A stretch of 64,000 nt of DNA from Gemmatimonadota bacterium (GTDB lineage Bacteria > Gemmatimonadota > Gemmatimonadetes > Palauibacterales > KS3-K002), in contig JBDHGH010000002.1 in assembly GCA_039589995.1 (NCBI GenBank), forward strand, positions 1,014 through 65,013. The letters run 5' to 3'. The translations under genes were made by a program, and so were the position numbers. Positions 24,893 through 64,000 of this stretch are shown here, piece after piece. The notes below the pieces were generated by a model. The model had not been told where the DNA came from, made no database searches, and worked only from the letters and a program-made list of their open reading frames with translations. Position 1 is the stretch's first letter. Each line of letters opens with the position of its first letter.

Positions 24893-25363
24893 ATGATGAG
24901 TGAGGAACGACGTCAGACATCATCGGAGGAGGCCGCACGCCTCGTTCTCGGAGCGGAGAGCCTTGCGAAGATTCGCGAACACCTTCAGCTCTCGTACCCC
25001 GAAGAAGCGTGCGGCGGTCTGCTCGGTCGTATCGCGTATGACAACGTCGTCGTCGTCGAAGAAACCGTATCGCTGGCAAACGCCCGCGTGGCGGAGCGCC
25101 GCCGGCGGTATCTCATCGGTCCGACCGATGTCCTCGAACTGGAACGTCGAGCCGAGGCATCCGGTCTCCAGGTCGTCGGGTATTACCACTCTCACCCGGA
25201 CGCGCCGCCCGTACCTTCGGAATTCGATCGAAAACACGCTTGGCCCTGGTACGCCTACCTAATCGCCAGCGTGGAGAGCGGGAATCTGACGCGATCGCAA
25301 GCCTGGCGACTGTCCGACGACCGCGAGCGCTTTTTGCCGCTGCAGCTGAGCGAAGAGGAGTAA
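24893..25363 (+). CDS. JAMM/MPN+ (Mov34) metalloprotease, Mec-like
   Basis: Catalytic Glu context YPEEACGGLLG and the JAMM motif HSHPDAPPVPSEFD (HxHx7Sx2D). Confidence 0.85.
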   Translation: MMSEERRQTSSEEAARLVLGAESLAKIREHLQLSYPEEACGGLLGRIAYDNVVVVEETVSLANARVAERRRRYLIGPTDVLELERRAEASGLQVVGYYHSHPDAPPVPSEFDRKHAWPWYAYLIASVESGNLTRSQAWRLSDDRERFLPLQLSEEE

Positions 25364-25389
25364 GCCCCAACCCCAAAGGCACCGAGACC

Positions 25390-26847
25390 ATGAGAAGAAT
25401 CTCCATTATTGTACCTACACCCTTGACGCAGTACACCGAGGGCCTGGACACCGTCGAGGTGGACGCTGACACCGTGGACCAGGCGCTCGATGCACTGACG
25501 AACCGTCACTCGGCGCTTAGGCGGCACTTGTACTCAGAAGACGGACACTTGCGGAGTTTCGTCAACATCTACCTAAATGAAGAGGATATCCGCTACCTTG
25601 AAGGTGGAGAGCGCGCCGGCTTGGAAAGCGGGGACGAGATCCGGATCGTCCCTTCCATCGCCGGTGGCAGAGTAGCGACCTTGGAAAAGGACCCAATGGA
25701 GCTCAGCCAGAACGAAGTCCGGCGTTATGCCCGCCATATCATCATGCCCGAGGTGGGGCTCGAAGGCCAGAAAAAGCTCAAGCAGGCCAGAGTTCTGCTG
25801 ATCGGGGCCGGCGGACTGGGCTCGCCATCGTCCCTCTACCTGGCCGCCGCCGGCGTTGGCACTATCGGCCTGGTCGATTTCGATGTGGTGGACGCCAGTA
25901 ATCTGCAGCGCCAGATCATTCACGGCACGCGCGACGTCGGTCGTGCCAAGTTGGACTCTGCCCGCGAGCGTTTGCTCGATGTGAATCCGGAGATAGCAGT
26001 GGAAACCCACGAGGTCCGCCTGCAATCGGACAACGCGCTCGATATACTCGAAGGCTATGACATCGTCGTCGACGGGACGGACAACTTTCCGACGCGTTAC
26101 TTGGTCAACGACGCCTGCGTTCTGCTGGGGAAGCCTAACGTCTACGGATCTATCTTCCGATTCGAAGGACAGGCATCGGTGTTCTACGCCAAGGAAGGCC
26201 CGTGCTATCGCTGCCTCTTCCGCGAACCACCACCTCCCGGGCTCGTACCGTCCTGCGCCGAAGGCGGAGTGCTCGGCGTCCTGCCCGGAATAGTCGGCGC
26301 CCTTCAGGCCAACGAGACCATCAAACTCATTATCGGCGAAGGCGAGCCGCTGATCGGACGGCTGCTCCTCTTCGACGCCCTAGGGATGAGATTTCGGGAG
26401 CTGCGGCTTCGAAAAGACCCGGAGTGCCCGATCTGCGGCGAGAACCCCACCGTCAGTCAGCTAATCGACTACGACGAGTTTTGCGGCGTCACTCAAGCTC
26501 AGCAGGAGCGTCAGGCGGCCCTGAGCCAGGTGCCAGCCATCACGGCCACCGAGTTGAAGGCGCGGCTCGACGCCGGTGCTGCGGTCCGAGTCATCGACGT
26601 ACGAGAGCCGCACGAGTGGAACATCTGCAACCTCGAAGTAGCCGAACTGGTACCGATCGGCTCGTTTCCGGGTCAGTTGAACAGCCTGGGCAACGCGGAG
26701 GAGGTTGTGGTGATCTGCCGGACCGGCCGTCGAAGCGCACACGCGGTTCGGCTGCTGCAGGAGATCGGTTTTCGCAAGGTCTACAATTTGACCGGCGGGC
26801 TTCATGCCTGGTCCGACGAAGTAGATCCTTCTATGCCCAAGTACTGA
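25390..26847 (+). CDS. tri-domain fusion: CysO/ThiS/MoaD-like sulfur carrier (ends ..AGG) plus MoeZ/ThiF-type adenylyltransferase plus rhodanese
   Basis: The ATG at 25390 lies after the JAMM gene stop. Residues 1-93 end IVPSIAGG. Next come RYARHIIMPEVGLEGQKKLKQARVLLIGAGGLGSP...NLQRQIIHG...CYRC...SCAEGGVLG...CPICG (E1-like), then a rhodanese domain with active-site ICRTGRRS. Confidence 0.85.
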   Translation: MRRISIIVPTPLTQYTEGLDTVEVDADTVDQALDALTNRHSALRRHLYSEDGHLRSFVNIYLNEEDIRYLEGGERAGLESGDEIRIVPSIAGGRVATLEKDPMELSQNEVRRYARHIIMPEVGLEGQKKLKQARVLLIGAGGLGSPSSLYLAAAGVGTIGLVDFDVVDASNLQRQIIHGTRDVGRAKLDSARERLLDVNPEIAVETHEVRLQSDNALDILEGYDIVVDGTDNFPTRYLVNDACVLLGKPNVYGSIFRFEGQASVFYAKEGPCYRCLFREPPPPGLVPSCAEGGVLGVLPGIVGALQANETIKLIIGEGEPLIGRLLLFDALGMRFRELRLRKDPECPICGENPTVSQLIDYDEFCGVTQAQQERQAALSQVPAITATELKARLDAGAAVRVIDVREPHEWNICNLEVAELVPIGSFPGQLNSLGNAEEVVVICRTGRRSAHAVRLLQEIGFRKVYNLTGGLHAWSDEVDPSMPKY

Positions 26848-45651: not shown

Positions 45652-46803
45652 CTACGGCACCCTCAGGGTTCCCGAGGCCGGGGCGAGCGTTGAGGTGCCC
45701 CCAAGCGGATTCGACAGAATGATCGCTTCGGCGAGCAGAGTGTAGTCGGCCGGCGTCGCGGCCGCGCTCAGGGTGATCCAGAGTGTCAGAATCGCGCTCT
45801 TGCCGGGCACCAGAACGTCGCCGTTCGAATCGAAAAGAACGGCCCTGACTCGCCCTGGACTCGTCTGGTTGAAGTCGATTCCATCGAACGCAGACGCCCG
45901 ATCCCTGACGGTCACCGAGTCCACCGAGGAGATCGTCGCCGAAGCGAAAACAAAGTCGAACTGAACTCCGGCGACCGAGTCGCCGTTGGATAGCCCGATA
46001 ATCACCGGGACGCCGGTGGCGCCGGCGCCTCCCTCGGAATCGCCCACGATAAGTCGGTCCGGATCGGCGGTTACGTTGAATGCAACCACGCCCGGAGAGG
46101 ATTCGTTGCCCACGCGATCGCTGATACTCGCCAACATCTGGTTTGGGCCCGCAGTAAAAGCGGCGCTATCGGGCACGGTCCAGCTGCCGCCGCTTTCTGT
46201 CACAGCATCAAACAGCGGTGTGAGGTCCGAACCGGCGGGGTAGAGGGTCGATGTCGTACCATCCTGCAGGAGCACGCCGCCAACAGGCTGACTGTTTGTG
46301 ATCTCGAAAGTCTCGGAATCGACCCCGCTGAAATACTCGAGGCCTGTCGTCTCCTCGGAAAAACCCAACTCGATCGTGAATCCCGACTGCCCGAGTGTCG
46401 AGCTACCACCCGCCGGCGACACAAAACCGGCGGTCGGGGCCTCGCTGTCCTGTTCTATATCGAGGGTATCGGCAGCCTGATTTCCGGCCTGGTCAACAGC
46501 CAGAACGGAAAACTCACTGATCGCATTCGCCAGCAAAGAGACCGTAAACGAGAACGCGCCATCCGTATCGGCGTCTTGCGACAACGTGTCCTGTGGCCCT
46601 TCCAGAGAGACGGTCGCGCCCGGATCCGTCGTCCCCGTGATGAGCGATGTCAATTCGTTCGTCGGGCTGGCCACCGAATCCACCGCCAACTCGATCGTCG
46701 TATCGCTGGGACCCGAGGAATCGGAACAGCCGGCCAAGGCCACTACCCCCAGGATCACCAATGAAGATCTTCTCACCACGAGCATCTCGTATGGCCTTTC
46801 CAC
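45652..46803 (-). CDS. surface lipoprotein with Ig-like domains and a C-terminal cohesin-like domain
   Basis: Lipobox VVALAGCSD. An Ig-like segment (GTTDPGATVSLEG...DTDGAFSFTVSL...VLAVDQAGN). The C-terminus GVPVIIGLSNGDSVAGVQFDFVF...RVRAVLFDSNGDVLVPGKSAILTLWITL resembles cohesin modules. Confidence 0.7.
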   Translation of the reverse strand: MERPYEMLVVRRSSLVILGVVALAGCSDSSGPSDTTIELAVDSVASPTNELTSLITGTTDPGATVSLEGPQDTLSQDADTDGAFSFTVSLLANAISEFSVLAVDQAGNQAADTLDIEQDSEAPTAGFVSPAGGSSTLGQSGFTIELGFSEETTGLEYFSGVDSETFEITNSQPVGGVLLQDGTTSTLYPAGSDLTPLFDAVTESGGSWTVPDSAAFTAGPNQMLASISDRVGNESSPGVVAFNVTADPDRLIVGDSEGGAGATGVPVIIGLSNGDSVAGVQFDFVFASATISSVDSVTVRDRASAFDGIDFNQTSPGRVRAVLFDSNGDVLVPGKSAILTLWITLSAAATPADYTLLAEAIILSNPLGGTSTLAPASGTLRVP

Positions 46804-46881
46804 TTCAATCCCATCGTGCCCAGACGGTCCCGACGACGTCGACGTCGCGTCCGCGTCCTCGCCCGCGCCCCGCGCCCGCGA

Positions 46882-47865
46882 CTAGAACATCGCACTGAGC
46901 GAAAGATGCGTCTCGTCACCCAGCTGATTCACCCCCAACTCCCTCGCCAAATCAAACCGAAACGCCCCCAAACCAACCCCCAACCCCACCGTCGTTCCCG
47001 TATTTGTCTCTATCAACGTTTCCGCGATGAAACCGCCACGCAGAAACAGAATCTCCCGGACCCCCAACTCCACCCCGAAATACTGGCTCCCCGTCTCAAG
47101 ATTCCGGATTGCGTGCTCGAGATCCAACGCCAACAACAACTGGATTCCCTTACCCGGCAACAGATGACTCAGAGCGTCGTAGGCGACTCCGAATCGGGCG
47201 CGCGCGGGCAACGGCTGAGCCTCGGCACCCGGCCGGTCGTCGAAACGGAGATCGGGGCCCAAATTCAGAGCACTCACACCCAGCTGAAGCGGAACGTTCG
47301 CCAGTGGCAGCCAATGCAACCCGGCATCGAAGCCGAAGGTGCTCCCCTTCAGCTGGCCCACCAGCTCGCTGCGGATCAGCTTCGCCGCCACGCCGAAAGA
47401 GAGCCTTTGGACGAGTCGGCGGCCGAAACCGAGGCTGACAACCAGGTTGTTCGGCGAGAGCTGGCCAATCGGTGTGTCGGGTGAATCCAGACCTGTCAAC
47501 GGAATGTCGCCGAAGCTTTGAACCTCGGCCGAGAGCGCCAGCACACCGAAATCAGAAATAGGCACCGCGGCTGCAAACTCGGTGACCACGAAATCGAGCG
47601 GCCCGTCATAGCTCGACACTAGCGGGTTAACAGCGTCGAGCGCGCCCAGAGAGGCTGGGTTCCACCGAACGTTCTGCAAGTCGCCGGCGATCGCCGTCGC
47701 CGCGCGTCCCATCCCCACGGGTCGAGCACCCGTCGGAATCAACAGGAACGCCGATTCGCGGTCGAAATCCTGCGCTTCCGCAACGTTCGACCCCGACATG
47801 GCGAGAGCCGCCAACGCGAACAGAATCCGCGGCTCGAGAAACAACGGGCGCTGTCGCCGAGTCAC
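46882..47865 (-). CDS. PorV/PorQ-family outer-membrane beta-barrel (T9SS-associated)
   Basis: Signal peptide, then FLLIPTGARPVGMGRAATAIAGDLQNVRWNPASLGAL and a C-terminal ...LSLSAMF beta-barrel terminus, typical of PorV/LptO-like proteins. Confidence 0.75.
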   Translation of the reverse strand: MTRRQRPLFLEPRILFALAALAMSGSNVAEAQDFDRESAFLLIPTGARPVGMGRAATAIAGDLQNVRWNPASLGALDAVNPLVSSYDGPLDFVVTEFAAAVPISDFGVLALSAEVQSFGDIPLTGLDSPDTPIGQLSPNNLVVSLGFGRRLVQRLSFGVAAKLIRSELVGQLKGSTFGFDAGLHWLPLANVPLQLGVSALNLGPDLRFDDRPGAEAQPLPARARFGVAYDALSHLLPGKGIQLLLALDLEHAIRNLETGSQYFGVELGVREILFLRGGFIAETLIETNTGTTVGLGVGLGAFRFDLARELGVNQLGDETHLSLSAMF

Positions 47866-47874
47866 GTTAGGTAC

Positions 47875-49269
47875 CTACCTTCCGGGTACGATCAGCTTCC
47901 GCGTCGCGCCAAACGACCCCGCCTGCAAGCGGAGCACGTACAGTCCCGTTCCGACTGACTCGCCTCGATCGTTCCGTCCGTCCCATTCGAGAGTGTGACT
48001 TCCGGGCATGAGATAGATGTCCATCAGGCGCCGTATCCTCTGACCCCGGACGTTGTACACGTCCGCGACAACCCTCACAGCGCCGCTCGCCTGACGACTA
48101 CTCCCCCCAGACAGTTCGGGCCCGAGTGCCTCCGGTATCTCGAGATCCAACTTCGTTCCCCTGCCCGTGACCAGGGGGTTGGGGTACGCGTTGCTCAGCC
48201 GGAACTCCAGCGGAAGCGTGGTGAGGTTGCTGCGGACCAACTTGGCCGGCACAACCGCGCCGCCTTTGAACGCGAACAGCACCTCTCGAAGTTCTAGCCC
48301 GAGGTCCTCATCTTGACGAAACGAACCGACGAGACGAACCGGTAGCTTCACAATCGCTCCGTCGCCGCCAGCCAGCGCCTGACCCGAAGCATCGTAGACC
48401 AGCAGCACCAACTCGTCCCCATCGTCCCGGTAGACGAGGTTGAAGCCCGTTGCCCGCGGCCCCAGCTCGGGCGTCCCCAGGCGGACACGCCCCGGATCGT
48501 AGGCGAGCCGCGCCTGCACACCTGCGACTCCAGACCCGACTTCGGCCTCGAGGAGAACGGTGCGCTCTTCGGGAGCCGAGCCGGAGCTTTCGAGGCCCAA
48601 CCTGGCCGCGCCGACGCGTTGGCCTGCCGCCGGCGTCAGCGAAGCGACGAGCGTGGACGAGCTGCCACCGAGAATCACATCGACCTGGCAAACGACGTCT
48701 CCGATGTCCAGCGCGTTATCTCTGTTGCAGTCTGATATCGCGGCGGTCACAGGATCTGGAGTCACTCGCTCCAGGATGATGTCGACGAGCGCCACGACAT
48801 CACCCACGTTCACGTCTCCGTCGTCGTTCACATCACCTTGGTCCCGGGCGATTATCTCGCCGAACCATGTGCCCCAAGTATTCGCCGGGGACGATGCGTA
48901 CTCGGAGTACATCCACGTCCGGGTCGGGTTGGCAGGGTCGATGGCCACTCCGCTGTAGTCACCCCACCGGTTCCGGCCGCTGTCGAAGTCCTTCACGTAG
49001 TTGGCTTCGCCGGCCTTCAGTGTAGCGCTGGGACGCAGTTCGCTGTCGCTGGGTCTGCGACCCGTGTAGCGGATGTCTATGTAGGAGTCCAGGCAAGACT
49101 GGTTGTAGACCATCGACATGTTGCCGTTGGCGTCAGCGGTGATGGCCGGATAGTAAAGCCAGGTCGATTCGCACGTAGCGCGCCCTGGCGTACTGCCCGG
49201 TTGCGTCTGCGACGCTGTGCGCCGTCCACACTGAGCCGTTCCGGTACACCAGGTTTCTGACCCTCGCAC
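47875..49269 (-). CDS. C-terminal fragment of a frameshift-split secreted protein: dockerin-like repeats, cohesin-like domain, T9SS/FlgD-Ig-type C-terminal sorting domain
   Basis: DVNDDGDVNVGDVVALVDIIL and DCNRDNALDIGDVVCQVDVIL are dockerin-type Ca-loop pairs. VAGVQARLAYDPGRV...LVLLVYDASGQALAGGDGAIVKLPV is cohesin-like. The tail is SNAYPNPL...VADVYNVRGQRIRRL...GSHTLEWDGRNDRGESVGTGLYVLRL. The first ~35 codons of this ORF look non-coding. Confidence 0.7.
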   Translation of the reverse strand: MRGSETWCTGTAQCGRRTASQTQPGSTPGRATCESTWLYYPAITADANGNMSMVYNQSCLDSYIDIRYTGRRPSDSELRPSATLKAGEANYVKDFDSGRNRWGDYSGVAIDPANPTRTWMYSEYASSPANTWGTWFGEIIARDQGDVNDDGDVNVGDVVALVDIILERVTPDPVTAAISDCNRDNALDIGDVVCQVDVILGGSSSTLVASLTPAAGQRVGAARLGLESSGSAPEERTVLLEAEVGSGVAGVQARLAYDPGRVRLGTPELGPRATGFNLVYRDDGDELVLLVYDASGQALAGGDGAIVKLPVRLVGSFRQDEDLGLELREVLFAFKGGAVVPAKLVRSNLTTLPLEFRLSNAYPNPLVTGRGTKLDLEIPEALGPELSGGSSRQASGAVRVVADVYNVRGQRIRRLMDIYLMPGSHTLEWDGRNDRGESVGTGLYVLRLQAGSFGATRKLIVPGR

Positions 49270-50920: not shown

Positions 50921-51237
50921 TCGAATCACGCTGGGTGGAGGGGCCAAGTGAATGCCGAAATATAGGGCGACGGCGAGCGGAACGGCCACCGGAGCCTATC
51001 AATCTGCAGCTAAAGAACTTGACTCCGGGCAACCGGGACTGTTTATTGATTTCGATGTTTCCCCGGTTTCCGCCGTATCATCAAGTAGAAACAGACTGAT
51101 CCGGCTCTCTTTCCCGTTACCAACGTCGAGCTGCTGTAGCGCGGCACCGGCTTCTATATAGCATCACGTCTGCTAACCGGCAGACTCTACGACTGACCGT
51201 CATGCTCCAACACAAACGCCGATTTGAGGAGGCGGTT

Positions 51238-53679
51238 ATGAGAGCGTTAGCCCCACTCACGTTGTTCGCAGGCTTGATCGTGGCCACGGCAGCACCTCCA
51301 GACCTTGTGGCACAAGACGTGGAGGAGCTTGGTCGCAAGCACGGGGTCAGACCACCGCCGGGCTATTACGAGGTCCTGGCTGCCGATCCCACGGCTTACC
51401 AGTTCAACGAAGTCTGGAGGGAGATCGCCCGCCAAGTGAGCGAGCAACGACGTGCTCTCGCCCGCGCGGGCGACTGGGCCGGGCTGAACGCGCACCTCGC
51501 TGACGGGCCGTCGAGGGCCGCGGCTACCGCGGCTGGAATCGCAGTTACTGGAACGTTCCGTTTCCCAGTGATCACCGGCATGTTCTCGGACAGCACGCAT
51601 GCCCTCCTTCCGGACACCGCCGGCTTGAATGCCAAACTCTTTACTACAGGAGCTGCACCGCCCTACTCGATCACGAAGTACTACGACGAGGTGTCCAACA
51701 CATTGCTGACCGTTACCGGTGACGTCGTCGGTTGGTTCACGGTGGACAGTGCCGCAGCGTGGTACGCGGGTACCAACAATGGGTTGAACCCCGGAACCGA
51801 CCGCCTCGGTGACTACATTCAAGAGCTGCTGAACCAAGCCGACCCGTTGATCGACTTCAGCCAATACGACAACGACAATAACGGCACCGTCGATCTGATC
51901 GCGATACTGCATCCTCTGGTGGGCGGAGAGTGCGGTACATCGAACATCTGGGCACACCGCTGGGTCTACAGGGTTTGGAAGGGTGCGCCTTACACAACCG
52001 CCGATGGCGTGACGGTGGACGACTATGTCGTCCAGGCGGCGGTCGGTGGCACCGGCGGGTGCACGGCCTCCGATACCATGGAAATCGGCACGATGACCCA
52101 CGAACTGGGTCACGGCATACTCAATATCCCCGACCTGTACGACACGGGCGGCAACTCGGAAGGCATCGGCGAATGGGGACTCATGGGCTCCGGGAATTGG
52201 AATGTCCAGAACAGTCCTGCCCATCTCGGGGCGTGGTCCAAGGATGAGGTTGGTTGGATCGCGATCGACACGGTAGACGCGTCACAGGGCACCGGCTCCC
52301 AGACGCTTAGCTCCGTCGTGCCGAATGACACCGCGATGAGGGTCGATATCAGCGGTACCAACGAGTACTTCCTTCTCGAGAACCGTCAGGGTAACGGCTC
52401 GGAAACGGGAAATCTGAACGGTCCGGGCCTGCTCATCTGGCACATCGACCCCGATCGGATCGCCGCGCGACGGAACGCGAACCAGGTGAACGCCATCGTA
52501 CCACACGGAGTCGACCTCGAGCAGGCCGATGGATCGGATCACCTCGGCAACAACGTCAATCGCGGTGATACGGGCGACCCCTGGCCAGGCTCAAGCAACA
52601 ATACAGTCTTCGGACCGTCGACGACGCCGAACTCCGAGCTGAACGACAACTCGAACTCGGCGCTTCGGGTCGACAGCATCACCCAGAACGGCGACGGTAG
52701 CGTCGGCTTCCGGGTGAACTTCAACGTCGTGAACGAGCGGGTCACCACCAGCATAGGTGTAGGGACCGAGGTGATCGTCGACGGGTCGAACGAAAACGCG
52801 CCCCACGACGTCGTCTGGGCGTTCCCGAGCAATCACAGCATCTCCGTCGATTCGATACAGGGCGACACGCTGATGCGCTACGTCTTTCAATCGTGGAGCG
52901 ACGGCGGTGCACGTTCGCACAACGTCGCAGCCGACGCCACGCCCGATACCTTCATCGCCAACCTGGATACCGAGCACCGGTTGAAGGCGACGACGGATAT
53001 TCAGGGCAACATCACTAGCTCGGAGACGCTCGACGCAAGCGGAGTCGCCTGGGTGGCGCCGACACAAAACGTCAGCCTGAAGGCGACACCTGCGACCTCG
53101 GGTTTCTTTTTCGTCGAGTGGACCGGCGACGTGTCCTCGACCAACGACTCCATCGAGGTGAACATGGCGCAGCCCCAGCAGGTGCACGCCGAGTTCGGCA
53201 CGGCCGTAGCCATCTCCACCACCGCACTGACCGCCGGCGTTATTGGCGCCGCTTACGTTGACACACTGATGGCGACGGGCGGCTCGGGCAACTTCACCTG
53301 GACTCAGGTGGGAGGCGACGCGCTGCCGGCCGGACTCAACATGAACGCCCAAGGTGTAATCACAGGCGCACCCGAGGAAGACGGCTCGTTCGCGATGGTC
53401 TTCCAAGCCGTATCGGGCGCGTTGTCCAGCACACAGGACACGGTGACGATGTCCGTGACCACGCCGACCCTGGCTCTGAGCAACGTGGTCAATCATCTGC
53501 TGGGCCCGATTCCAGTGCTGTCGGACGATGAAGAGAACTACCTCGACATCATCGGCAATAACAACGGACGCTTCGATGTCGGTGACTTCCGGGCCTACCT
53601 ACAGGATACCGGCGTCGTCACCGACGTTGTACCCGCGACGACGAAGGACCAGCCGGCGCATAAGGAGGAAGGACGATGA
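51238..53679 (+). CDS. M6-family (immune inhibitor A-like) zinc metalloprotease with Ig-like domains and a C-terminal dockerin-like loop
   Basis: The ATG at 51238 is preceded by GAGGAGG. Signal MRALAPLTLFAGLIVATAAPPDLVAQ. Zinc site MTHELGHGILNIPDLYD. A putative-Ig segment (TGGSGNFTWTQVGGDALPAGLNMNAQGVITGAP). Tail LDIIGNNNGRFDVGDFRAYL. Confidence 0.85.
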   Translation: MRALAPLTLFAGLIVATAAPPDLVAQDVEELGRKHGVRPPPGYYEVLAADPTAYQFNEVWREIARQVSEQRRALARAGDWAGLNAHLADGPSRAAATAAGIAVTGTFRFPVITGMFSDSTHALLPDTAGLNAKLFTTGAAPPYSITKYYDEVSNTLLTVTGDVVGWFTVDSAAAWYAGTNNGLNPGTDRLGDYIQELLNQADPLIDFSQYDNDNNGTVDLIAILHPLVGGECGTSNIWAHRWVYRVWKGAPYTTADGVTVDDYVVQAAVGGTGGCTASDTMEIGTMTHELGHGILNIPDLYDTGGNSEGIGEWGLMGSGNWNVQNSPAHLGAWSKDEVGWIAIDTVDASQGTGSQTLSSVVPNDTAMRVDISGTNEYFLLENRQGNGSETGNLNGPGLLIWHIDPDRIAARRNANQVNAIVPHGVDLEQADGSDHLGNNVNRGDTGDPWPGSSNNTVFGPSTTPNSELNDNSNSALRVDSITQNGDGSVGFRVNFNVVNERVTTSIGVGTEVIVDGSNENAPHDVVWAFPSNHSISVDSIQGDTLMRYVFQSWSDGGARSHNVAADATPDTFIANLDTEHRLKATTDIQGNITSSETLDASGVAWVAPTQNVSLKATPATSGFFFVEWTGDVSSTNDSIEVNMAQPQQVHAEFGTAVAISTTALTAGVIGAAYVDTLMATGGSGNFTWTQVGGDALPAGLNMNAQGVITGAPEEDGSFAMVFQAVSGALSSTQDTVTMSVTTPTLALSNVVNHLLGPIPVLSDDEENYLDIIGNNNGRFDVGDFRAYLQDTGVVTDVVPATTKDQPAHKEEGR

Positions 53680-60079: not shown

Positions 60080-60477
60080 CCCAAAAAGAAAAGTCCGGGT
60101 TGCCACCGGTCTCTCGCGCAAATGGCCCCAACCAGCCTCCGGCGGCAAACCCGGACCCGTCTCAAAATGTCCCACCATCCGCTAGCGCCCGGGGTCTACC
60201 CCGACGCACGTCCTGGGTCCGACGCTCTCCTTGAAGGCACAGCGCGTACCAATGCTGAGTGTGGCGCCAAGTCATTATTATTATTAGAGTTAGGTCAGTA
60301 CACGTCCTCACGATCGCGGCCGGACGCGGGCGGATTGTCTCGCGGGGGGACAGGCGGATGGCCACCTTTGGTGTGCGAGCCCGCTTACCGATACAGGGCA
60401 CATGAATTGCACTTTAGCGCGCCGCTTCAGGATAAACCCGCAGCCCACCGTGGGGTGGAAGGGGATCACGAGGGAGG

Positions 60478-63336
60478 ATGCAGAAGCAACTGGGGCAGTC
60501 CCGGTCGGGGGTTAGAACCTCGAGCGCGGGATCCCCGATCGCGCACGCGTCTTTGGCGAGCGCGATCGCGGCAACGGTCCTAGCTCTCGCGGCTTCACTG
60601 GTACCTGCTACCGCCCGCGCCCAGGGGAACGACACGTGCCTGATGTGCCACGAGCAGGAAGCCCTGTTCTCCGGCCAACAGGATCCGTCGAGATACGTAG
60701 TCACGCGCCAGCAACACGACGCCTCGCTGCATGGCCGGGCCGGTGTCCTTTGCACCCAGTGCCACGCTGGGTTGTCTTTCCCACACGGTGACGTAAGACC
60801 GGCTGCGGACTGTACCGCGTGCCACGATGACCAGTCGATCCAGCACGCGGCTTCCCTCCATGGCCAGGCGGCGGCTAATAACGATCCACTCGCCCCCAGC
60901 TGTGCCACGTGCCATGGCATCCATGATATCAAAGCCCACACTGATCCGACATCGCCGACCTATGTCTTCAATATCCCGCTGCTCTGCGGTGAATGTCACC
61001 ACGAGGGGACGCCCGTCTCACGCACGCGCAACATTCCACAGGATCAAATACTAGAGAACTACTCGCTATCGATTCATGGGGCAGGATTGTTCGAGCAGGG
61101 CTTGGCGGTGACGGCGGTCTGCACGTCGTGCCACACCTCTCATTTCATCCTTCCGCACACCGACGAGCGCTCCAGTATCTACAAGGACAACGTCCCGGGT
61201 ACGTGCACCCAGTGCCACGCGTTGATCGAGGAAGTGCATCGACAGGTCATTGAGGGAAGGCTGTGGGAAGAAGAGCCGCACAAGATACCCGTGTGCGTGG
61301 ATTGCCATTCGCCGCACAAGATCCGTCGTGTTTTCTACGATGCGGGTGCGGCGAATGCGGACTGCATGCGCTGTCACTCGGATCCGACCCTGACGATGGA
61401 ACGAGACGGGGAATCGATCTCGCTGTACGTAGATGAAGGGGAGTACGCCACATCGATGCACGGCGGAACCGGATGTGCCCAGTGTCACACCGATGTCACT
61501 CCTTCGCTACTGGAACGACCCTGCGTGACCACCGTGGCCACAAACGTGGACTGCGCGATATGTCACCCCGTGCCGGTAGACGATTACACATCCGGCACGC
61601 ATGGCAGGCTTTCCGCCCAAGGCGTTGCAGACGCTCCTACGTGTAGAGACTGCCACGACTCCCACGCCACGCAAGGACGCCTTACGCCGACGTCCCCGAC
61701 CTTCGCGAGAAACGTCCCCGACCTCTGTTCCCGCTGCCACCGCGACGGTGAGGTGGCGGCGCAGCGGATTCACCACGAAGGCCCGGATATCGTCAACAGC
61801 TACGAGATGTCGATTCACGGCACGGGGCTCATCGAGAGCGGACTCGTAGTAACCGCGGTTTGCTCTAGTTGCCACACGCCCCACAAGGAGCTCCCGCCGG
61901 ACGATCCCGAGTCTTCGATCAACGCGGACAACATCGCCGATACTTGCGGTAGCTGTCACCACGGAATCCAAGTAGCCTACGCGGCCAGCGTGCACGGGCA
62001 GCGCCAGGACGAGGCTCCCGAGGGCAAGGAGTTCCCGACCTGCGAGGAGTGTCACACGTCGCATTCGATCAGTCGCGTCGACCAGGGCGACTTCCGGATG
62101 ACGATGATGAATCAGTGCGGACGTTGCCACGAAGAGGAGTCGGAGAGCTTCTTCGACACGTTCCACGGAAAGGTCTCGCGGCTGGGCGACGCGGGAACGG
62201 CCAAGTGCTACGACTGTCACGGAACGCACAACATCCAGCCGATCACCGACCCCGAGTCAACTCTGAGCCGCAGAAACATCGTCGAGACGTGCGCGCAGTG
62301 CCACCCCGGAGCCAACCGGAAGTTCACGGGCTACCTGACCCACGCTACGCACCACGACGCGGAAAGGTACCCCTGGCTGTTTTGGACTTTCTGGGGCATG
62401 ACAGCGCTGCTGGTAAGCGTGCTCAGCTTCGCCACGATCCACACCCTGGCATGGCTGTTCAGACTGTGGCGCTCGCCAGGTGAGTGGACGCGCCACAAGG
62501 AAGTCGAAGGCGAGGCGCTCTATCGGCGCTTCACGACGTTCGAGCGAACGCTGCACCTCGCGATGCTGATCAGCTTCTTCGTGCTGGCCATAACCGGCAT
62601 GATACTGAAGTTCTCGTACATGGGTTGGGCCCAAGTTGCAGCCAGCCTGGCGGGTGGCTTCGCAACCACCGGCGTGCTGCACAGGCTGGGCGCTGTTGCG
62701 CTCATCACGGTCTTCGCGATCCACCTGTTCGATGTATTTCAGCGCAAACAGATGTCGAAGAAGAGCTGGCGCGCGTTCATCTTCTCCGATAGCTCCTTGA
62801 TGTTCAACCTGACCGACCTGCGCGAGTTCGCCGGGTCGATCAAGTGGTTCATCGGGAGAGGGCCGCGGCCGAAGTACGGACGCTTTACCTACTGGGAGAA
62901 GTTCGACTACTTCGCGGTCTTCTGGGGAATGTTCATCATCGGCTCGACCGGGCTCTTGCTCTGGTTCCCCGAGTTCTTCACGAACCTTCTGCCGGGATGG
63001 ACCGTGAACGTGGCCACGATACTCCACAGCGACGAGGCGTTGCTCGCCGTGGCCTTCATCTTCACGATTCACTTCTTCAACACGCACTTCCGGCCAGACA
63101 AGTTCCCGATGGACCCGGTGATTTTCACCGGACGCGTGCCGCTTGAAGAGCTGAAGCAAGACAAGCCCCGGGAGTACCAGCAGATCGTCGACGGGGGCAA
63201 GCTCGACGAGTACCTGGTACACCCCTATCCGAAGAAGCTACAGAGGCTGTTCAGAGCGTTCGGGTTCGCAGCGTTATTCGTGGGACTGACGTTGATCTTC
63301 CTGATACTCTGGACAATGCTGACTTCGTACTTGTAG
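60478..63336 (+). CDS. multihaem c-type cytochrome (19 CXXCH) fused to a C-terminal multi-His polytopic membrane domain (cytochrome b-like)
   Basis: Signal peptide, then 19 CXXCH motifs counted in the supplied translation. From about nt 62365 there are 5-6 hydrophobic helices with conserved His (TIHTL, TLHLAM, LHRLG, AIHLF, ILHSDEA, TIHFFNTH). Confidence 0.9.
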   Translation: MQKQLGQSRSGVRTSSAGSPIAHASLASAIAATVLALAASLVPATARAQGNDTCLMCHEQEALFSGQQDPSRYVVTRQQHDASLHGRAGVLCTQCHAGLSFPHGDVRPAADCTACHDDQSIQHAASLHGQAAANNDPLAPSCATCHGIHDIKAHTDPTSPTYVFNIPLLCGECHHEGTPVSRTRNIPQDQILENYSLSIHGAGLFEQGLAVTAVCTSCHTSHFILPHTDERSSIYKDNVPGTCTQCHALIEEVHRQVIEGRLWEEEPHKIPVCVDCHSPHKIRRVFYDAGAANADCMRCHSDPTLTMERDGESISLYVDEGEYATSMHGGTGCAQCHTDVTPSLLERPCVTTVATNVDCAICHPVPVDDYTSGTHGRLSAQGVADAPTCRDCHDSHATQGRLTPTSPTFARNVPDLCSRCHRDGEVAAQRIHHEGPDIVNSYEMSIHGTGLIESGLVVTAVCSSCHTPHKELPPDDPESSINADNIADTCGSCHHGIQVAYAASVHGQRQDEAPEGKEFPTCEECHTSHSISRVDQGDFRMTMMNQCGRCHEEESESFFDTFHGKVSRLGDAGTAKCYDCHGTHNIQPITDPESTLSRRNIVETCAQCHPGANRKFTGYLTHATHHDAERYPWLFWTFWGMTALLVSVLSFATIHTLAWLFRLWRSPGEWTRHKEVEGEALYRRFTTFERTLHLAMLISFFVLAITGMILKFSYMGWAQVAASLAGGFATTGVLHRLGAVALITVFAIHLFDVFQRKQMSKKSWRAFIFSDSSLMFNLTDLREFAGSIKWFIGRGPRPKYGRFTYWEKFDYFAVFWGMFIIGSTGLLLWFPEFFTNLLPGWTVNVATILHSDEALLAVAFIFTIHFFNTHFRPDKFPMDPVIFTGRVPLEELKQDKPREYQQIVDGGKLDEYLVHPYPKKLQRLFRAFGFAALFVGLTLIFLILWTMLTSYL

Positions 63337-63371: not shown

Positions 63372-64000
63372 CTACTCCGAGGTGAGGGCGTGGGCGACCA
63401 CCGCCTGGCCTAGCGACAGCCCACCATCATCAGGTGGAACCTGACGGTGCGTGAACACCTCGAACTCCACTGCCTTCAACCCGTCCACGAGACGCTGCGT
63501 GAGAAGAGCACTCTTGAAGCAGCCTCCGCTGAGAACCACACGATTCAGTCCGCGAACGTCGCGGATCTGCTCGCAGGTGGTCCGCGTAAATGCCGCCACG
63601 CTGTTATGGAAGGCAGCTGCGATGTACCGCACGGGTCGGCCAGCACGATATTCGCACCAGAGAGCGCGGAGTAGCGCTGCCGGATCGATGATCCAACCGT
63701 CCCCACGTCGGATGACATCGTAAGGATAGACCTCCCCGACTCGCGGATCGGCGATCGCCTCCAACTCCACTGCGGGTTGGCCTTCATATAGCGCCTCTCT
63801 GCACACACCGAGCATGGCCGCCGCCGCGTCGAAAAGTCGGCTGCAAGAAGATGTCAAAGGCGTTTTGTCTCCACCTTCGAGTTGACGCCGAAGCATGATG
63901 CGTTCGCCGATCGGCACCGTCGCCAGGTACGACTCGAATTCGGATTCGCTGGCTGCACACACCGACCAGACATAGGCGGCCGCCATTCGATACGGATGCA
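63372..64000 (-). CDS. hypF: [NiFe]-hydrogenase maturation carbamoyltransferase HypF, C-terminal part (gene continues past the window end)
   Basis: SSCSRLFDAAAAMLG, EGQPAVELE, AAAFHNSVA, VVLSGGCFKSALL, and HRQVPPDDGGLSLGQAVVA are canonical for the HypF Kae1-like C-terminal domain. The frame stays open upstream of the listed ATG to nt 64000. Confidence 0.9.
   Translation of the reverse strand, partial: HPYRMAAAYVWSVCAASESEFESYLATVPIGERIMLRRQLEGGDKTPLTSSCSRLFDAAAAMLGVCREALYEGQPAVELEAIADPRVGEVYPYDVIRRGDGWIIDPAALLRALWCEYRAGRPVRYIAAAFHNSVAAFTRTTCEQIRDVRGLNRVVLSGGCFKSALLTQRLVDGLKAVEFEVFTHRQVPPDDGGLSLGQAVVAHALTSE

Follow-up and report, generated by a model that had tools for sequence, protein, structure and literature searches.

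The window analysed here, a 64,000-nt stretch of contig JBDHGH010000002.1 (assembly GCA_039589995.1) from a Gemmatimonadota bacterium, carries near its 3' end an intact open reading frame (ORF; 60478..63336, + strand) encoding a 952-amino-acid (aa) protein with 19 CXXCH haem-binding motifs and a C-terminal membrane domain. Its placement in the CbcL/MtoC/MtrH family, within a 19-motif subclass that is known and already tabulated, is well supported by sequence comparison, and a 2018 survey lists an equivalent Gemmatimonadetes protein (Zhong and Shi, 2018; PMC6295460). Considering its sequence, its modelled fold and its likeness to characterised proteins, the gene product is probably an inner-membrane quinol/quinone:cytochrome c oxidoreductase of that family, and its most likely function would be that of a quinol:cytochrome oxidoreductase feeding an outer-membrane electron conduit.

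Architecture and family of the 19-motif cytochrome

The ORF lies exactly where a prior sequence-only reading of the window had placed it. That reading described a single polypeptide joining a multihaem c domain to a b-type membrane domain, as in Geobacter CbcL, and the same architecture, with six transmembrane (TM) helices, was found here. The parts of the gene, and the evidence for each, are as follows (pLDDT, predicted local distance difference test; AF2, AlphaFold2):

60478..63336, + strand: whole gene, CbcL/MtoC/MtrH-type fused cytochrome with 19 c-type haems and a predicted dihaem b membrane domain (ORF, motif count, Pfam/NCBIfam matches, full-length homologues)
60478..60621, + strand: putative signal peptide region, aa 1-48, predicted cleavage between ARA and QG (hydrophobic aa 19-49; low pLDDT and a single helix, 26-39, in the model; cleavage from the AXA site)
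60628..61332, + strand: 8-haem module 1, aa 51-285, CXXCH 1-8 (alignment to aa 293-534)
61354..62079, + strand: 8-haem module 2, aa 293-534, CXXCH 9-16 (alignment to module 1; 11-haem paralogues align from aa ~288 on)
62080..62370, + strand: 3-haem membrane-proximal segment, aa 535-631, CXXCH 17-19, with the family-invariant H622 (motif positions, His conservation)
62371..63333, + strand: six-helix membrane domain, aa 632-952, comprising TM0 (632-665, with H655), an FdnI-like TM1-4 core (H693, H735, H850, H865) and a C-terminal helix (919-951) (AF2 helices, hhalign, Foldseek, His conservation)

The earlier reading had counted 19 CXXCH motifs behind a signal peptide, and our count was likewise exactly 19, at aa 54, 92, 112, 142, 170, 215, 243, 273, 296, 333, 359, 389, 417, 462, 490, 522, 547, 577, and 605. 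The motifs span aa 54-609 and contain 38 of the protein's 39 cysteines. On direct reading, the hydrophobic stretch at the N terminus (aa 19-49) ends in ARA followed by QG, which is consistent with a Sec signal peptide and its AXA site. The internal duplication that had been noted is real and larger than described, i.e., haems 1-8 (aa 51-285) match haems 9-16 (aa 293-534) with 36% identity (E = 2e-53). The c domain therefore consists of two tandem 8-haem modules followed by a 3-haem membrane-proximal segment (8+8+3). In relatives, moreover, the gene has neighbouring paralogues with 11 haems and a b domain (644-676 aa); these match aa ~290-900 with 30% identity, so that the 19-haem form looks like the 11-haem form plus one added 8-haem module.

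Among 125 sequences, 22 non-motif His residues were at least 90% conserved, while M544 (93%) was the only Met at that level. These His residues would be enough for bis-His ligation of all 19 haems and, since 22 are conserved as against one Met, they argue for an electron-transfer chain rather than a catalytic haem site. A catalytic multihaem enzyme of the HAO- or NrfA-like type was considered and rejected: Foldseek matches of the c domain to hydroxylamine oxidoreductases were weak (E = 0.02; template modelling score, TM-score, 0.15-0.30), the conserved distal His residues, at least 22 in number, suggest that all haems are six-coordinate, and no CXXCK motif occurs in the 952-aa protein. The nearest solved structure to the c domain by sequence was PDB 28pb_A ('Cytochrome c', 278 aa; E = 7.6e-6 over aa 296-426), the first five haem motifs of which have spacings that somewhat recall the beginning of the 8-haem module.

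The AF2 model (mean pLDDT 83.2) contained helices at aa 632-665, 687-711, 728-760, 805-829, 841-870, and 919-951; pLDDT within these six was mostly >85, and hydropathy agreed. Family searches were strong for the multihaem Pfam families (Cytochrome_C7, 84 bits; Paired_CXXCH_1, 80 bits; Cytochrom_c3_2, 76 bits), whereas Ni_hydr_CYTB (PF01292) matched aa 616-768 below its family threshold (22.1 vs. 30.1 bits). The NCBIfam model of the FdnI gamma subunit (TIGR01583) matched aa 683-871 with E = 2e-9, likewise below threshold (37.6 vs. 115.85 bits), and the adjacent 11-haem paralogue in relatives passed the PF01292 cutoff (58 bits). When a profile of 89 diverse b domains of the family was aligned to Escherichia coli FdnI by hhalign (probability 97.6%, E = 4e-12), the FdnI haem ligands H18, H57, H155, and H169 fell on H693, H735, H850, and H865, i.e., one His in TM1, one in TM2 and two in TM4. 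These four residues were invariant in 125 orthologues and present in 87-89 of 89 members of the wider family. Similarly, the best PDB match of the whole model in Foldseek was FdnI (1kqf_C; E = 8.5e-5, probability 1.00, TM-score 0.76 on the target), and HyaC (4gd3_A) scored 0.51. The FdnI/HydC-like dihaem b domain proposed by the sequence-only reading is therefore borne out in its ligands and fold, and the membrane domain is predicted to be an FdnI-type four-helix bundle that binds two b haems.

By equivalence to FdnI, H735 and H850 would hold a b haem near the periplasm and H693 and H865 one near the cytoplasm. Since the known topology of FdnI starts its first helix on the cytoplasmic side, TM0 would be topologically required, bringing the chain from the periplasmic c domain back to that side. 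An invariant TYWEKFDY segment (aa 804-811) aligned by hhalign to FdnI residues 110-117, including the loop N110-Q113, which we take to be the quinone-site loop of FdnI; the menaquinone/2-heptyl-4-hydroxyquinoline N-oxide (HQNO) pocket of FdnI is reported (Jormakka et al., 2002) to adjoin its cytoplasmic-side haem. Because of this alignment, a cytoplasmic-side quinone site near TYWEKFDY is plausible. Further His residues of the membrane domain were conserved in the wider family, namely H655 in TM0 (87/89), H749 in TM2 (65/89) and H870 (77/89), and all three were invariant in the 125 orthologues. H749 lies 14 residues past H735 in the same helix, a classic two-haem spacing, and the three residues could belong to a third haem or to a quinone site. 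Thus, the domain shares with FdnI (the gamma subunit of E. coli formate dehydrogenase-N, PDB 1KQF chain C) the four-helix dihaem b fold, four equivalent axial His residues and the position of the loop. However, FdnI forms a subunit of its own (217 aa) and docks to an FeS subunit, whereas the window domain has two more helices, a covalent multihaem c fusion, three additional conserved His residues and sub-cutoff family scores.

Zhong and Shi (2018) reported CbcL/MtrH/MtoC homologues from 15 phyla, with 416-1034 aa, 3-23 CX2CH motifs, mostly six TM segments, within-family identities of 28.6-100% and frequent linkage to mtrAB/mtoAB (PMC6295460). Its Table S2 includes a Gemmatimonadetes protein, MAF27600.1 (951 aa; 19 motifs, 53...603; six TM segments, 638-948), whose inter-motif spacings differ from those of the window ORF by no more than 3 residues, together with about twelve further proteins with 19 motifs (Bacteroidetes, Ignavibacteria, Syntrophaceae, Handelsmanbacteria, and others), several with 20 and one with 23. 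The sequence-only reading had regarded 19 haems as unusually long; this view does not stand, given the published range and the 21-, 22-, and 23-motif relatives that we found. Proteins with the CbcL and MtoC layouts, chosen as stand-ins for the reference sequences by motif spacings matching published entries, aligned to aa ~350-930 of the window protein with 33% (E = 1e-87) and 34% identity (E = 2e-100), respectively, which is the range that the survey gives between CbcL and MtoC. Cluster origin was Magnetococcales for the MtoC-layout protein and Hydrogenedentota for one 19-haem protein.

CbcL of Geobacter sulfurreducens (GSU0274) has six helices, two b haems and nine c haems; it is required for reducing low-potential acceptors, and its 9-haem domain reduces PpcA. 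Both proteins combine, in one polypeptide, a periplasmic bis-His multihaem c domain with a C-terminal six-helix, HydC/FdnI-like dihaem b domain, and the identity of the window protein to proteins of CbcL spacing extends over its last haems and its whole b domain. They differ in size (619 aa with 9 haems in CbcL vs. 952 aa with 19), in the tandemly duplicated 8-haem module of the window protein, in carrier (Gemmatimonadota, not Desulfuromonadia) and in neighbouring genes.

More than 120 full-length close homologues (63-93% identity, about 920-960 aa) were collected from independent assemblies, mostly metagenome-assembled genomes (MAGs) of Gemmatimonadota, and 117 of 120 were single polypeptides with exactly 19 motifs. 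When one genome per species was scanned, at least 597 species-representative genomes contained relatives. The best 80 of these matches were full length (51-78% identity) and came from Gemmatimonadota, Acidobacteriota (Thermoanaerobaculia, Bryobacteraceae), Woeseiaceae, other Gammaproteobacteria and a few other groups. At orthologous loci, 61 of 86 proteins had 19 motifs, and variants with 21 and 23 occurred in Acidobacteriota and others. Searches with the b domain alone gave 2,421 clusters (50% identity) at E ≤ 1e-3; whole proteins of the top 150 representatives had 0-22 CXXCH motifs, with modes at 9 and 11, and 50 of them, several being fragments, had none. Although such stand-alone b-domain proteins occur in the family, the chance that separate multihaem cytochrome and cytochrome b genes were joined by a frameshift or an assembly error near nt 62360 is negligible: this explanation is ruled out by a reading frame that is continuous and a GC content that is steady across that point, by the fusion kept in 117 of 120 independently assembled homologues and in 80 species genomes from several phyla, and by the presence of the extra TM0 helix that the topology requires.

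Gene neighbourhoods in relatives

Genes within 7 kb of the 19-haem gene were clustered, without bias, over 86 loci (numbered from L001). The syntenic relative L001 (76% identity) lies on a complete MAG chromosome (CP070812.1), where the next genes, on the opposite strand, are hypF, a hypB-like gene, hypA, and genes for a Zip transporter, a tetrahaem cytochrome, a 9-haem cytochrome (278 aa) and a 516-aa haem-free secreted protein; L009 has the same arrangement. The last of these proteins belongs to a family of ~500 aa (c3), examples of which occur at L001:19387-20937(-), L002:13034-14533, L003:12893-14404, L005:12946-14400, and about 20 more loci. At 20-22 of 30 Gemmatimonadota loci, a c3 protein and a 9-16-haem cytochrome (family c2) are encoded nearby, mostly directly 3' of the gene, and in the cases read gene by gene the c3 and c2 genes overlap by 4 bp. 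In L001 and L009, the closest relatives of the window, this pair lies 4-7 kb downstream.

The c3 family, annotated only as 'hypothetical protein', was seen only in Gemmatimonadota-type loci. Its AF2 model (pLDDT 86.4, predicted TM-score 0.79) was all-beta, with about 24-26 long antiparallel strands, and its structural matches (372 at E ≤ 1e-3) were all outer-membrane barrels, including the FimD usher domain, MOMP, FepA, AlgE, and, with E = 3.5e-7, MtrB. The c3 protein is thus a predicted outer-membrane beta-barrel. A comparison may be drawn with mtoC and mtrH of Dechloromonas, Gallionella, and Rhodoferax and with the published 19-23-motif homologues (Zhong and Shi, 2018), which share with the window gene their family, their layout and, as seen here in relatives, linkage to an outer-membrane barrel and a multihaem cytochrome. 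However, the barrel partner found here is an unannotated family without a Pfam match, in which no relation to MtrB/MtoB was detected by sequence and whose fold has only a generic likeness to barrels; its gene mostly precedes that of the cytochrome. Likewise, the barrel and 9-16-haem cytochrome of relatives recall porin-cytochrome conduits (MtrAB/MtoAB; Geobacter OmbB-OmaB-OmcB), the cytochrome being of MtrA-like size.

Other cytochrome genes recur in these neighbourhoods. The 11-haem (sometimes 9-haem) cytochrome b paralogue was found near the 19-haem gene at 44 of 86 loci from several phyla, usually adjacent and usually on the same strand (e.g., L003:4931-6865, L005:7971-10001), which suggests two parallel or cooperating quinol:cytochrome modules. 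A cytochrome of ~660 aa was encoded at 16 loci (e.g., L003:2885-4867, L005:5872-7857); its 18-21 CXXCH motifs and its N-terminal membrane anchor of the NapC/NirT type, which passed the Pfam cutoff with 28 bits, predict a further very long haem chain tethered to the membrane in these islands. Rieske/cytochrome b pairs were also among the conserved neighbours. In Acidobacteriota and Woeseiaceae, the barrel pair is replaced by an adjacent conserved gene (21 loci; e.g., L043:8241-9647, L046:14953-16359, L033:12714-14159(-)) for a ~480-aa protein with 5 CXXCH motifs and a NapC/NirT domain (31.5 bits); judging from its sequence it appears to have three N-terminal TM helices, and its layout is ImcH-like. 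Taken as multi-pathway 'cytochrome islands', these loci are reminiscent of Geobacter.

The sequence-only reading had correctly described the flanks of the window gene, with a convergent hypF and an upstream metal-efflux pair, and suggested that a [NiFe]-hydrogenase cluster may lie just beyond the window. This suggestion is weakly supported, and a hydrogenase-linked cytochrome b (HyaC/HydC role) was rejected, since L001 has hypF, the hypB-like gene and hypA and no hydrogenase structural genes within 10 kb, and the gene of most relatives is not beside hyp genes. The hypF adjacency is probably incidental. A functional link to the upstream efflux pair was rejected as well, as its linkage is conserved only in the closest clade (L001). 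A paper on Palauibacterales ties hyaABCD to possible metal respiration and does not mention the 19-haem cytochrome.

Proposed electron path and its direction

Once the protein is exported by the Sec route and its haems are attached, a portion of about 580 residues with the 19 c-type haems would reside in the periplasm, TM0 would return the chain to the cytoplasmic side, and the next four helices would form the FdnI-type bundle with two b haems. Quinol might then be oxidised at the cytoplasmic-side site, beside the cytoplasmic-side b haem, and electrons would pass via the b haems to the 19-haem chain. From there, they could move to small periplasmic tetrahaem cytochromes, directly to the 9-16-haem cytochrome in the ~24-strand outer-membrane barrel, or to both. 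The net role would be respiration to extracellular or insoluble acceptors, e.g., Fe(III) or Mn(IV) oxides. With an FdnI-like cytoplasmic quinone site, outward electron flow would dissipate membrane potential, a property that fits the low-potential role of CbcL. The sequence-only reading had proposed a quinol-to-periplasm or extracellular electron conduit; the conduit part fits the outer-membrane partner genes of relatives, while quinol oxidation was an assumed direction.

Several points weigh against this proposal. Sequence does not reveal the direction of electron flow, and the 2018 survey found no feature that separates quinol oxidases from quinone reductases (PMC6295460). The experimental precedent is the 9-haem CbcL rather than any 19-haem member, and H655, H749, and H870 are unexplained by a plain dihaem model. 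Partner genes for the window protein are inferred from relatives, as the window ends 664 bp 3' of the gene and no second multihaem gene is present within its 64 kb. Finally, the barrel/cytochrome pair was undetected in the Acidobacteriota and Woeseiaceae loci, and because of this the outer-membrane link may be lineage-specific.

Conceivably, the same machinery operates in reverse, a role that has been proposed for MtoC of Fe(II) oxidisers. The protein would then be a quinone reductase that takes electrons from the periplasm or outer membrane, with Fe(II), reduced minerals or H2- or sulfur-derived electrons as donors, and cytoplasmic-side quinone reduction would build proton-motive force as in FdnI. 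We consider this direction rather unlikely, though of appreciable weight. FdnI, a homologue of the b domain, itself works in this direction, and the window protein is equally similar to the MtoC-layout and CbcL-layout proteins. Carriers include Woeseiaceae and Gemmatimonadota, which are often facultative aerobes or lithotrophs. Fe(II) oxidisers and Fe(III) reducers alike carry members of the family (PMC6295460). However, the neighbourhood encodes no donor-specific module, multihaem chains with bis-His ligation usually have low potentials, the potential of the CbcL c domain (-194 mV) suits electron export, and nothing in the sequence discriminates between the two directions.

It is quite unlikely, in our estimation, that the protein serves periplasmic reductases as a quinol dehydrogenase, or acts as a general periplasmic electron buffer (capacitor), in the manner of NrfH/NrfBCD or a CymA hub, instead of an extracellular conduit. 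Parts of the c domain do resemble NrfB (NCBIfam, E = 2.7e-7; PDB 2ozy, E = 4e-5), the gene stands alone in the window, and a barrel was not found beside it in Acidobacteriota and Woeseiaceae. Nevertheless, no gene for a terminal reductase recurred in the conserved clusters of neighbours, which were drawn from within 7 kb of the 19-haem gene, and the strongest conserved partners in Gemmatimonadota are the outer-membrane barrel and multihaem cytochrome. The proposed role in feeding an outer-membrane conduit also has a more ambitious form, in which the 8+8+3 chain would be long enough to cross the periplasm and pass electrons directly to the barrel-held cytochrome. This would make a hard-wired, two- or three-protein trans-envelope circuit that dispenses with soluble shuttles, with or without a third membrane redox centre or unusual quinone site at H655/H749/H870. 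We regard this form as doubtful.

Window flanks and biological significance

Two features adjoin the cytochrome gene:

60080..60477, no strand assigned: upstream intergenic region, 398 bp, 62% GC (direct reading)
63372..63986, - strand: 3' part of hypF, convergent neighbour given for context and outside the system (HypF_C_2, 161 bits)

The upstream intergenic region probably holds the gene's own promoter, although a promoter/terminator scan gave nothing useful on the + strand, and no sigma-70-like site was found on the + strand of this region. Within it, we observed an AT-rich patch (60269-60298, AAGTCATTATTATTATTAGAGTTAGGTCAG, 27% GC), which may be a promoter element of the cytochrome gene. 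The metal-efflux pair upstream encodes an ArsR-type regulator (HTH_5, 70 bits) and a heavy-metal P-type ATPase (HMA and E1-E2_ATPase domains). Genes sampled further upstream, at about 25-57 kb of the window, were housekeeping genes. Elsewhere, a single 535-aa ORF (25240-26847, +) combines ThiS, ThiF and rhodanese domains and would be a sulfur-carrier protein fused to its own activating enzyme; its TTG start may be over-extended. Genes for PorV-like (type IX secretion), FlgD Ig-like domain and bacterial Ig-domain proteins are clustered at 45652-49269 (-), and an M6 peptidase gene (51202-53679) adjoins this cluster.

The conceptual addition made by this gene is small, since the 2018 survey already described the family, its haem-number range of 3-23 and, among its entries, a 19-motif Gemmatimonadetes protein (Zhong and Shi, 2018; PMC6295460). 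Points that appear to go beyond the available portion of that survey are the 8+8+3 duplication, the mapping of FdnI ligands with the extra conserved His residues, and the c3/c2 partner family in Gemmatimonadota. The high-haem subclass is very widespread, occurring in Gemmatimonadota, Acidobacteriota, Woeseiaceae, and others, with many members from sediment and soil metagenomes. Its members currently carry no annotation beyond 'cytochrome c3 family protein' or 'cytochrome b subunit of formate dehydrogenase'; the annotation of iron- and manganese-cycling genes in metagenomes could improve. We know of no characterised extracellular electron transfer in the phylum Gemmatimonadota. The conserved link of the 19-haem gene to an unannotated barrel family and a 9-16-haem cytochrome provides a concrete candidate route for such transfer and, if the more ambitious form of the proposal were true, a hard-wired trans-envelope circuit would exist in Gemmatimonadota.

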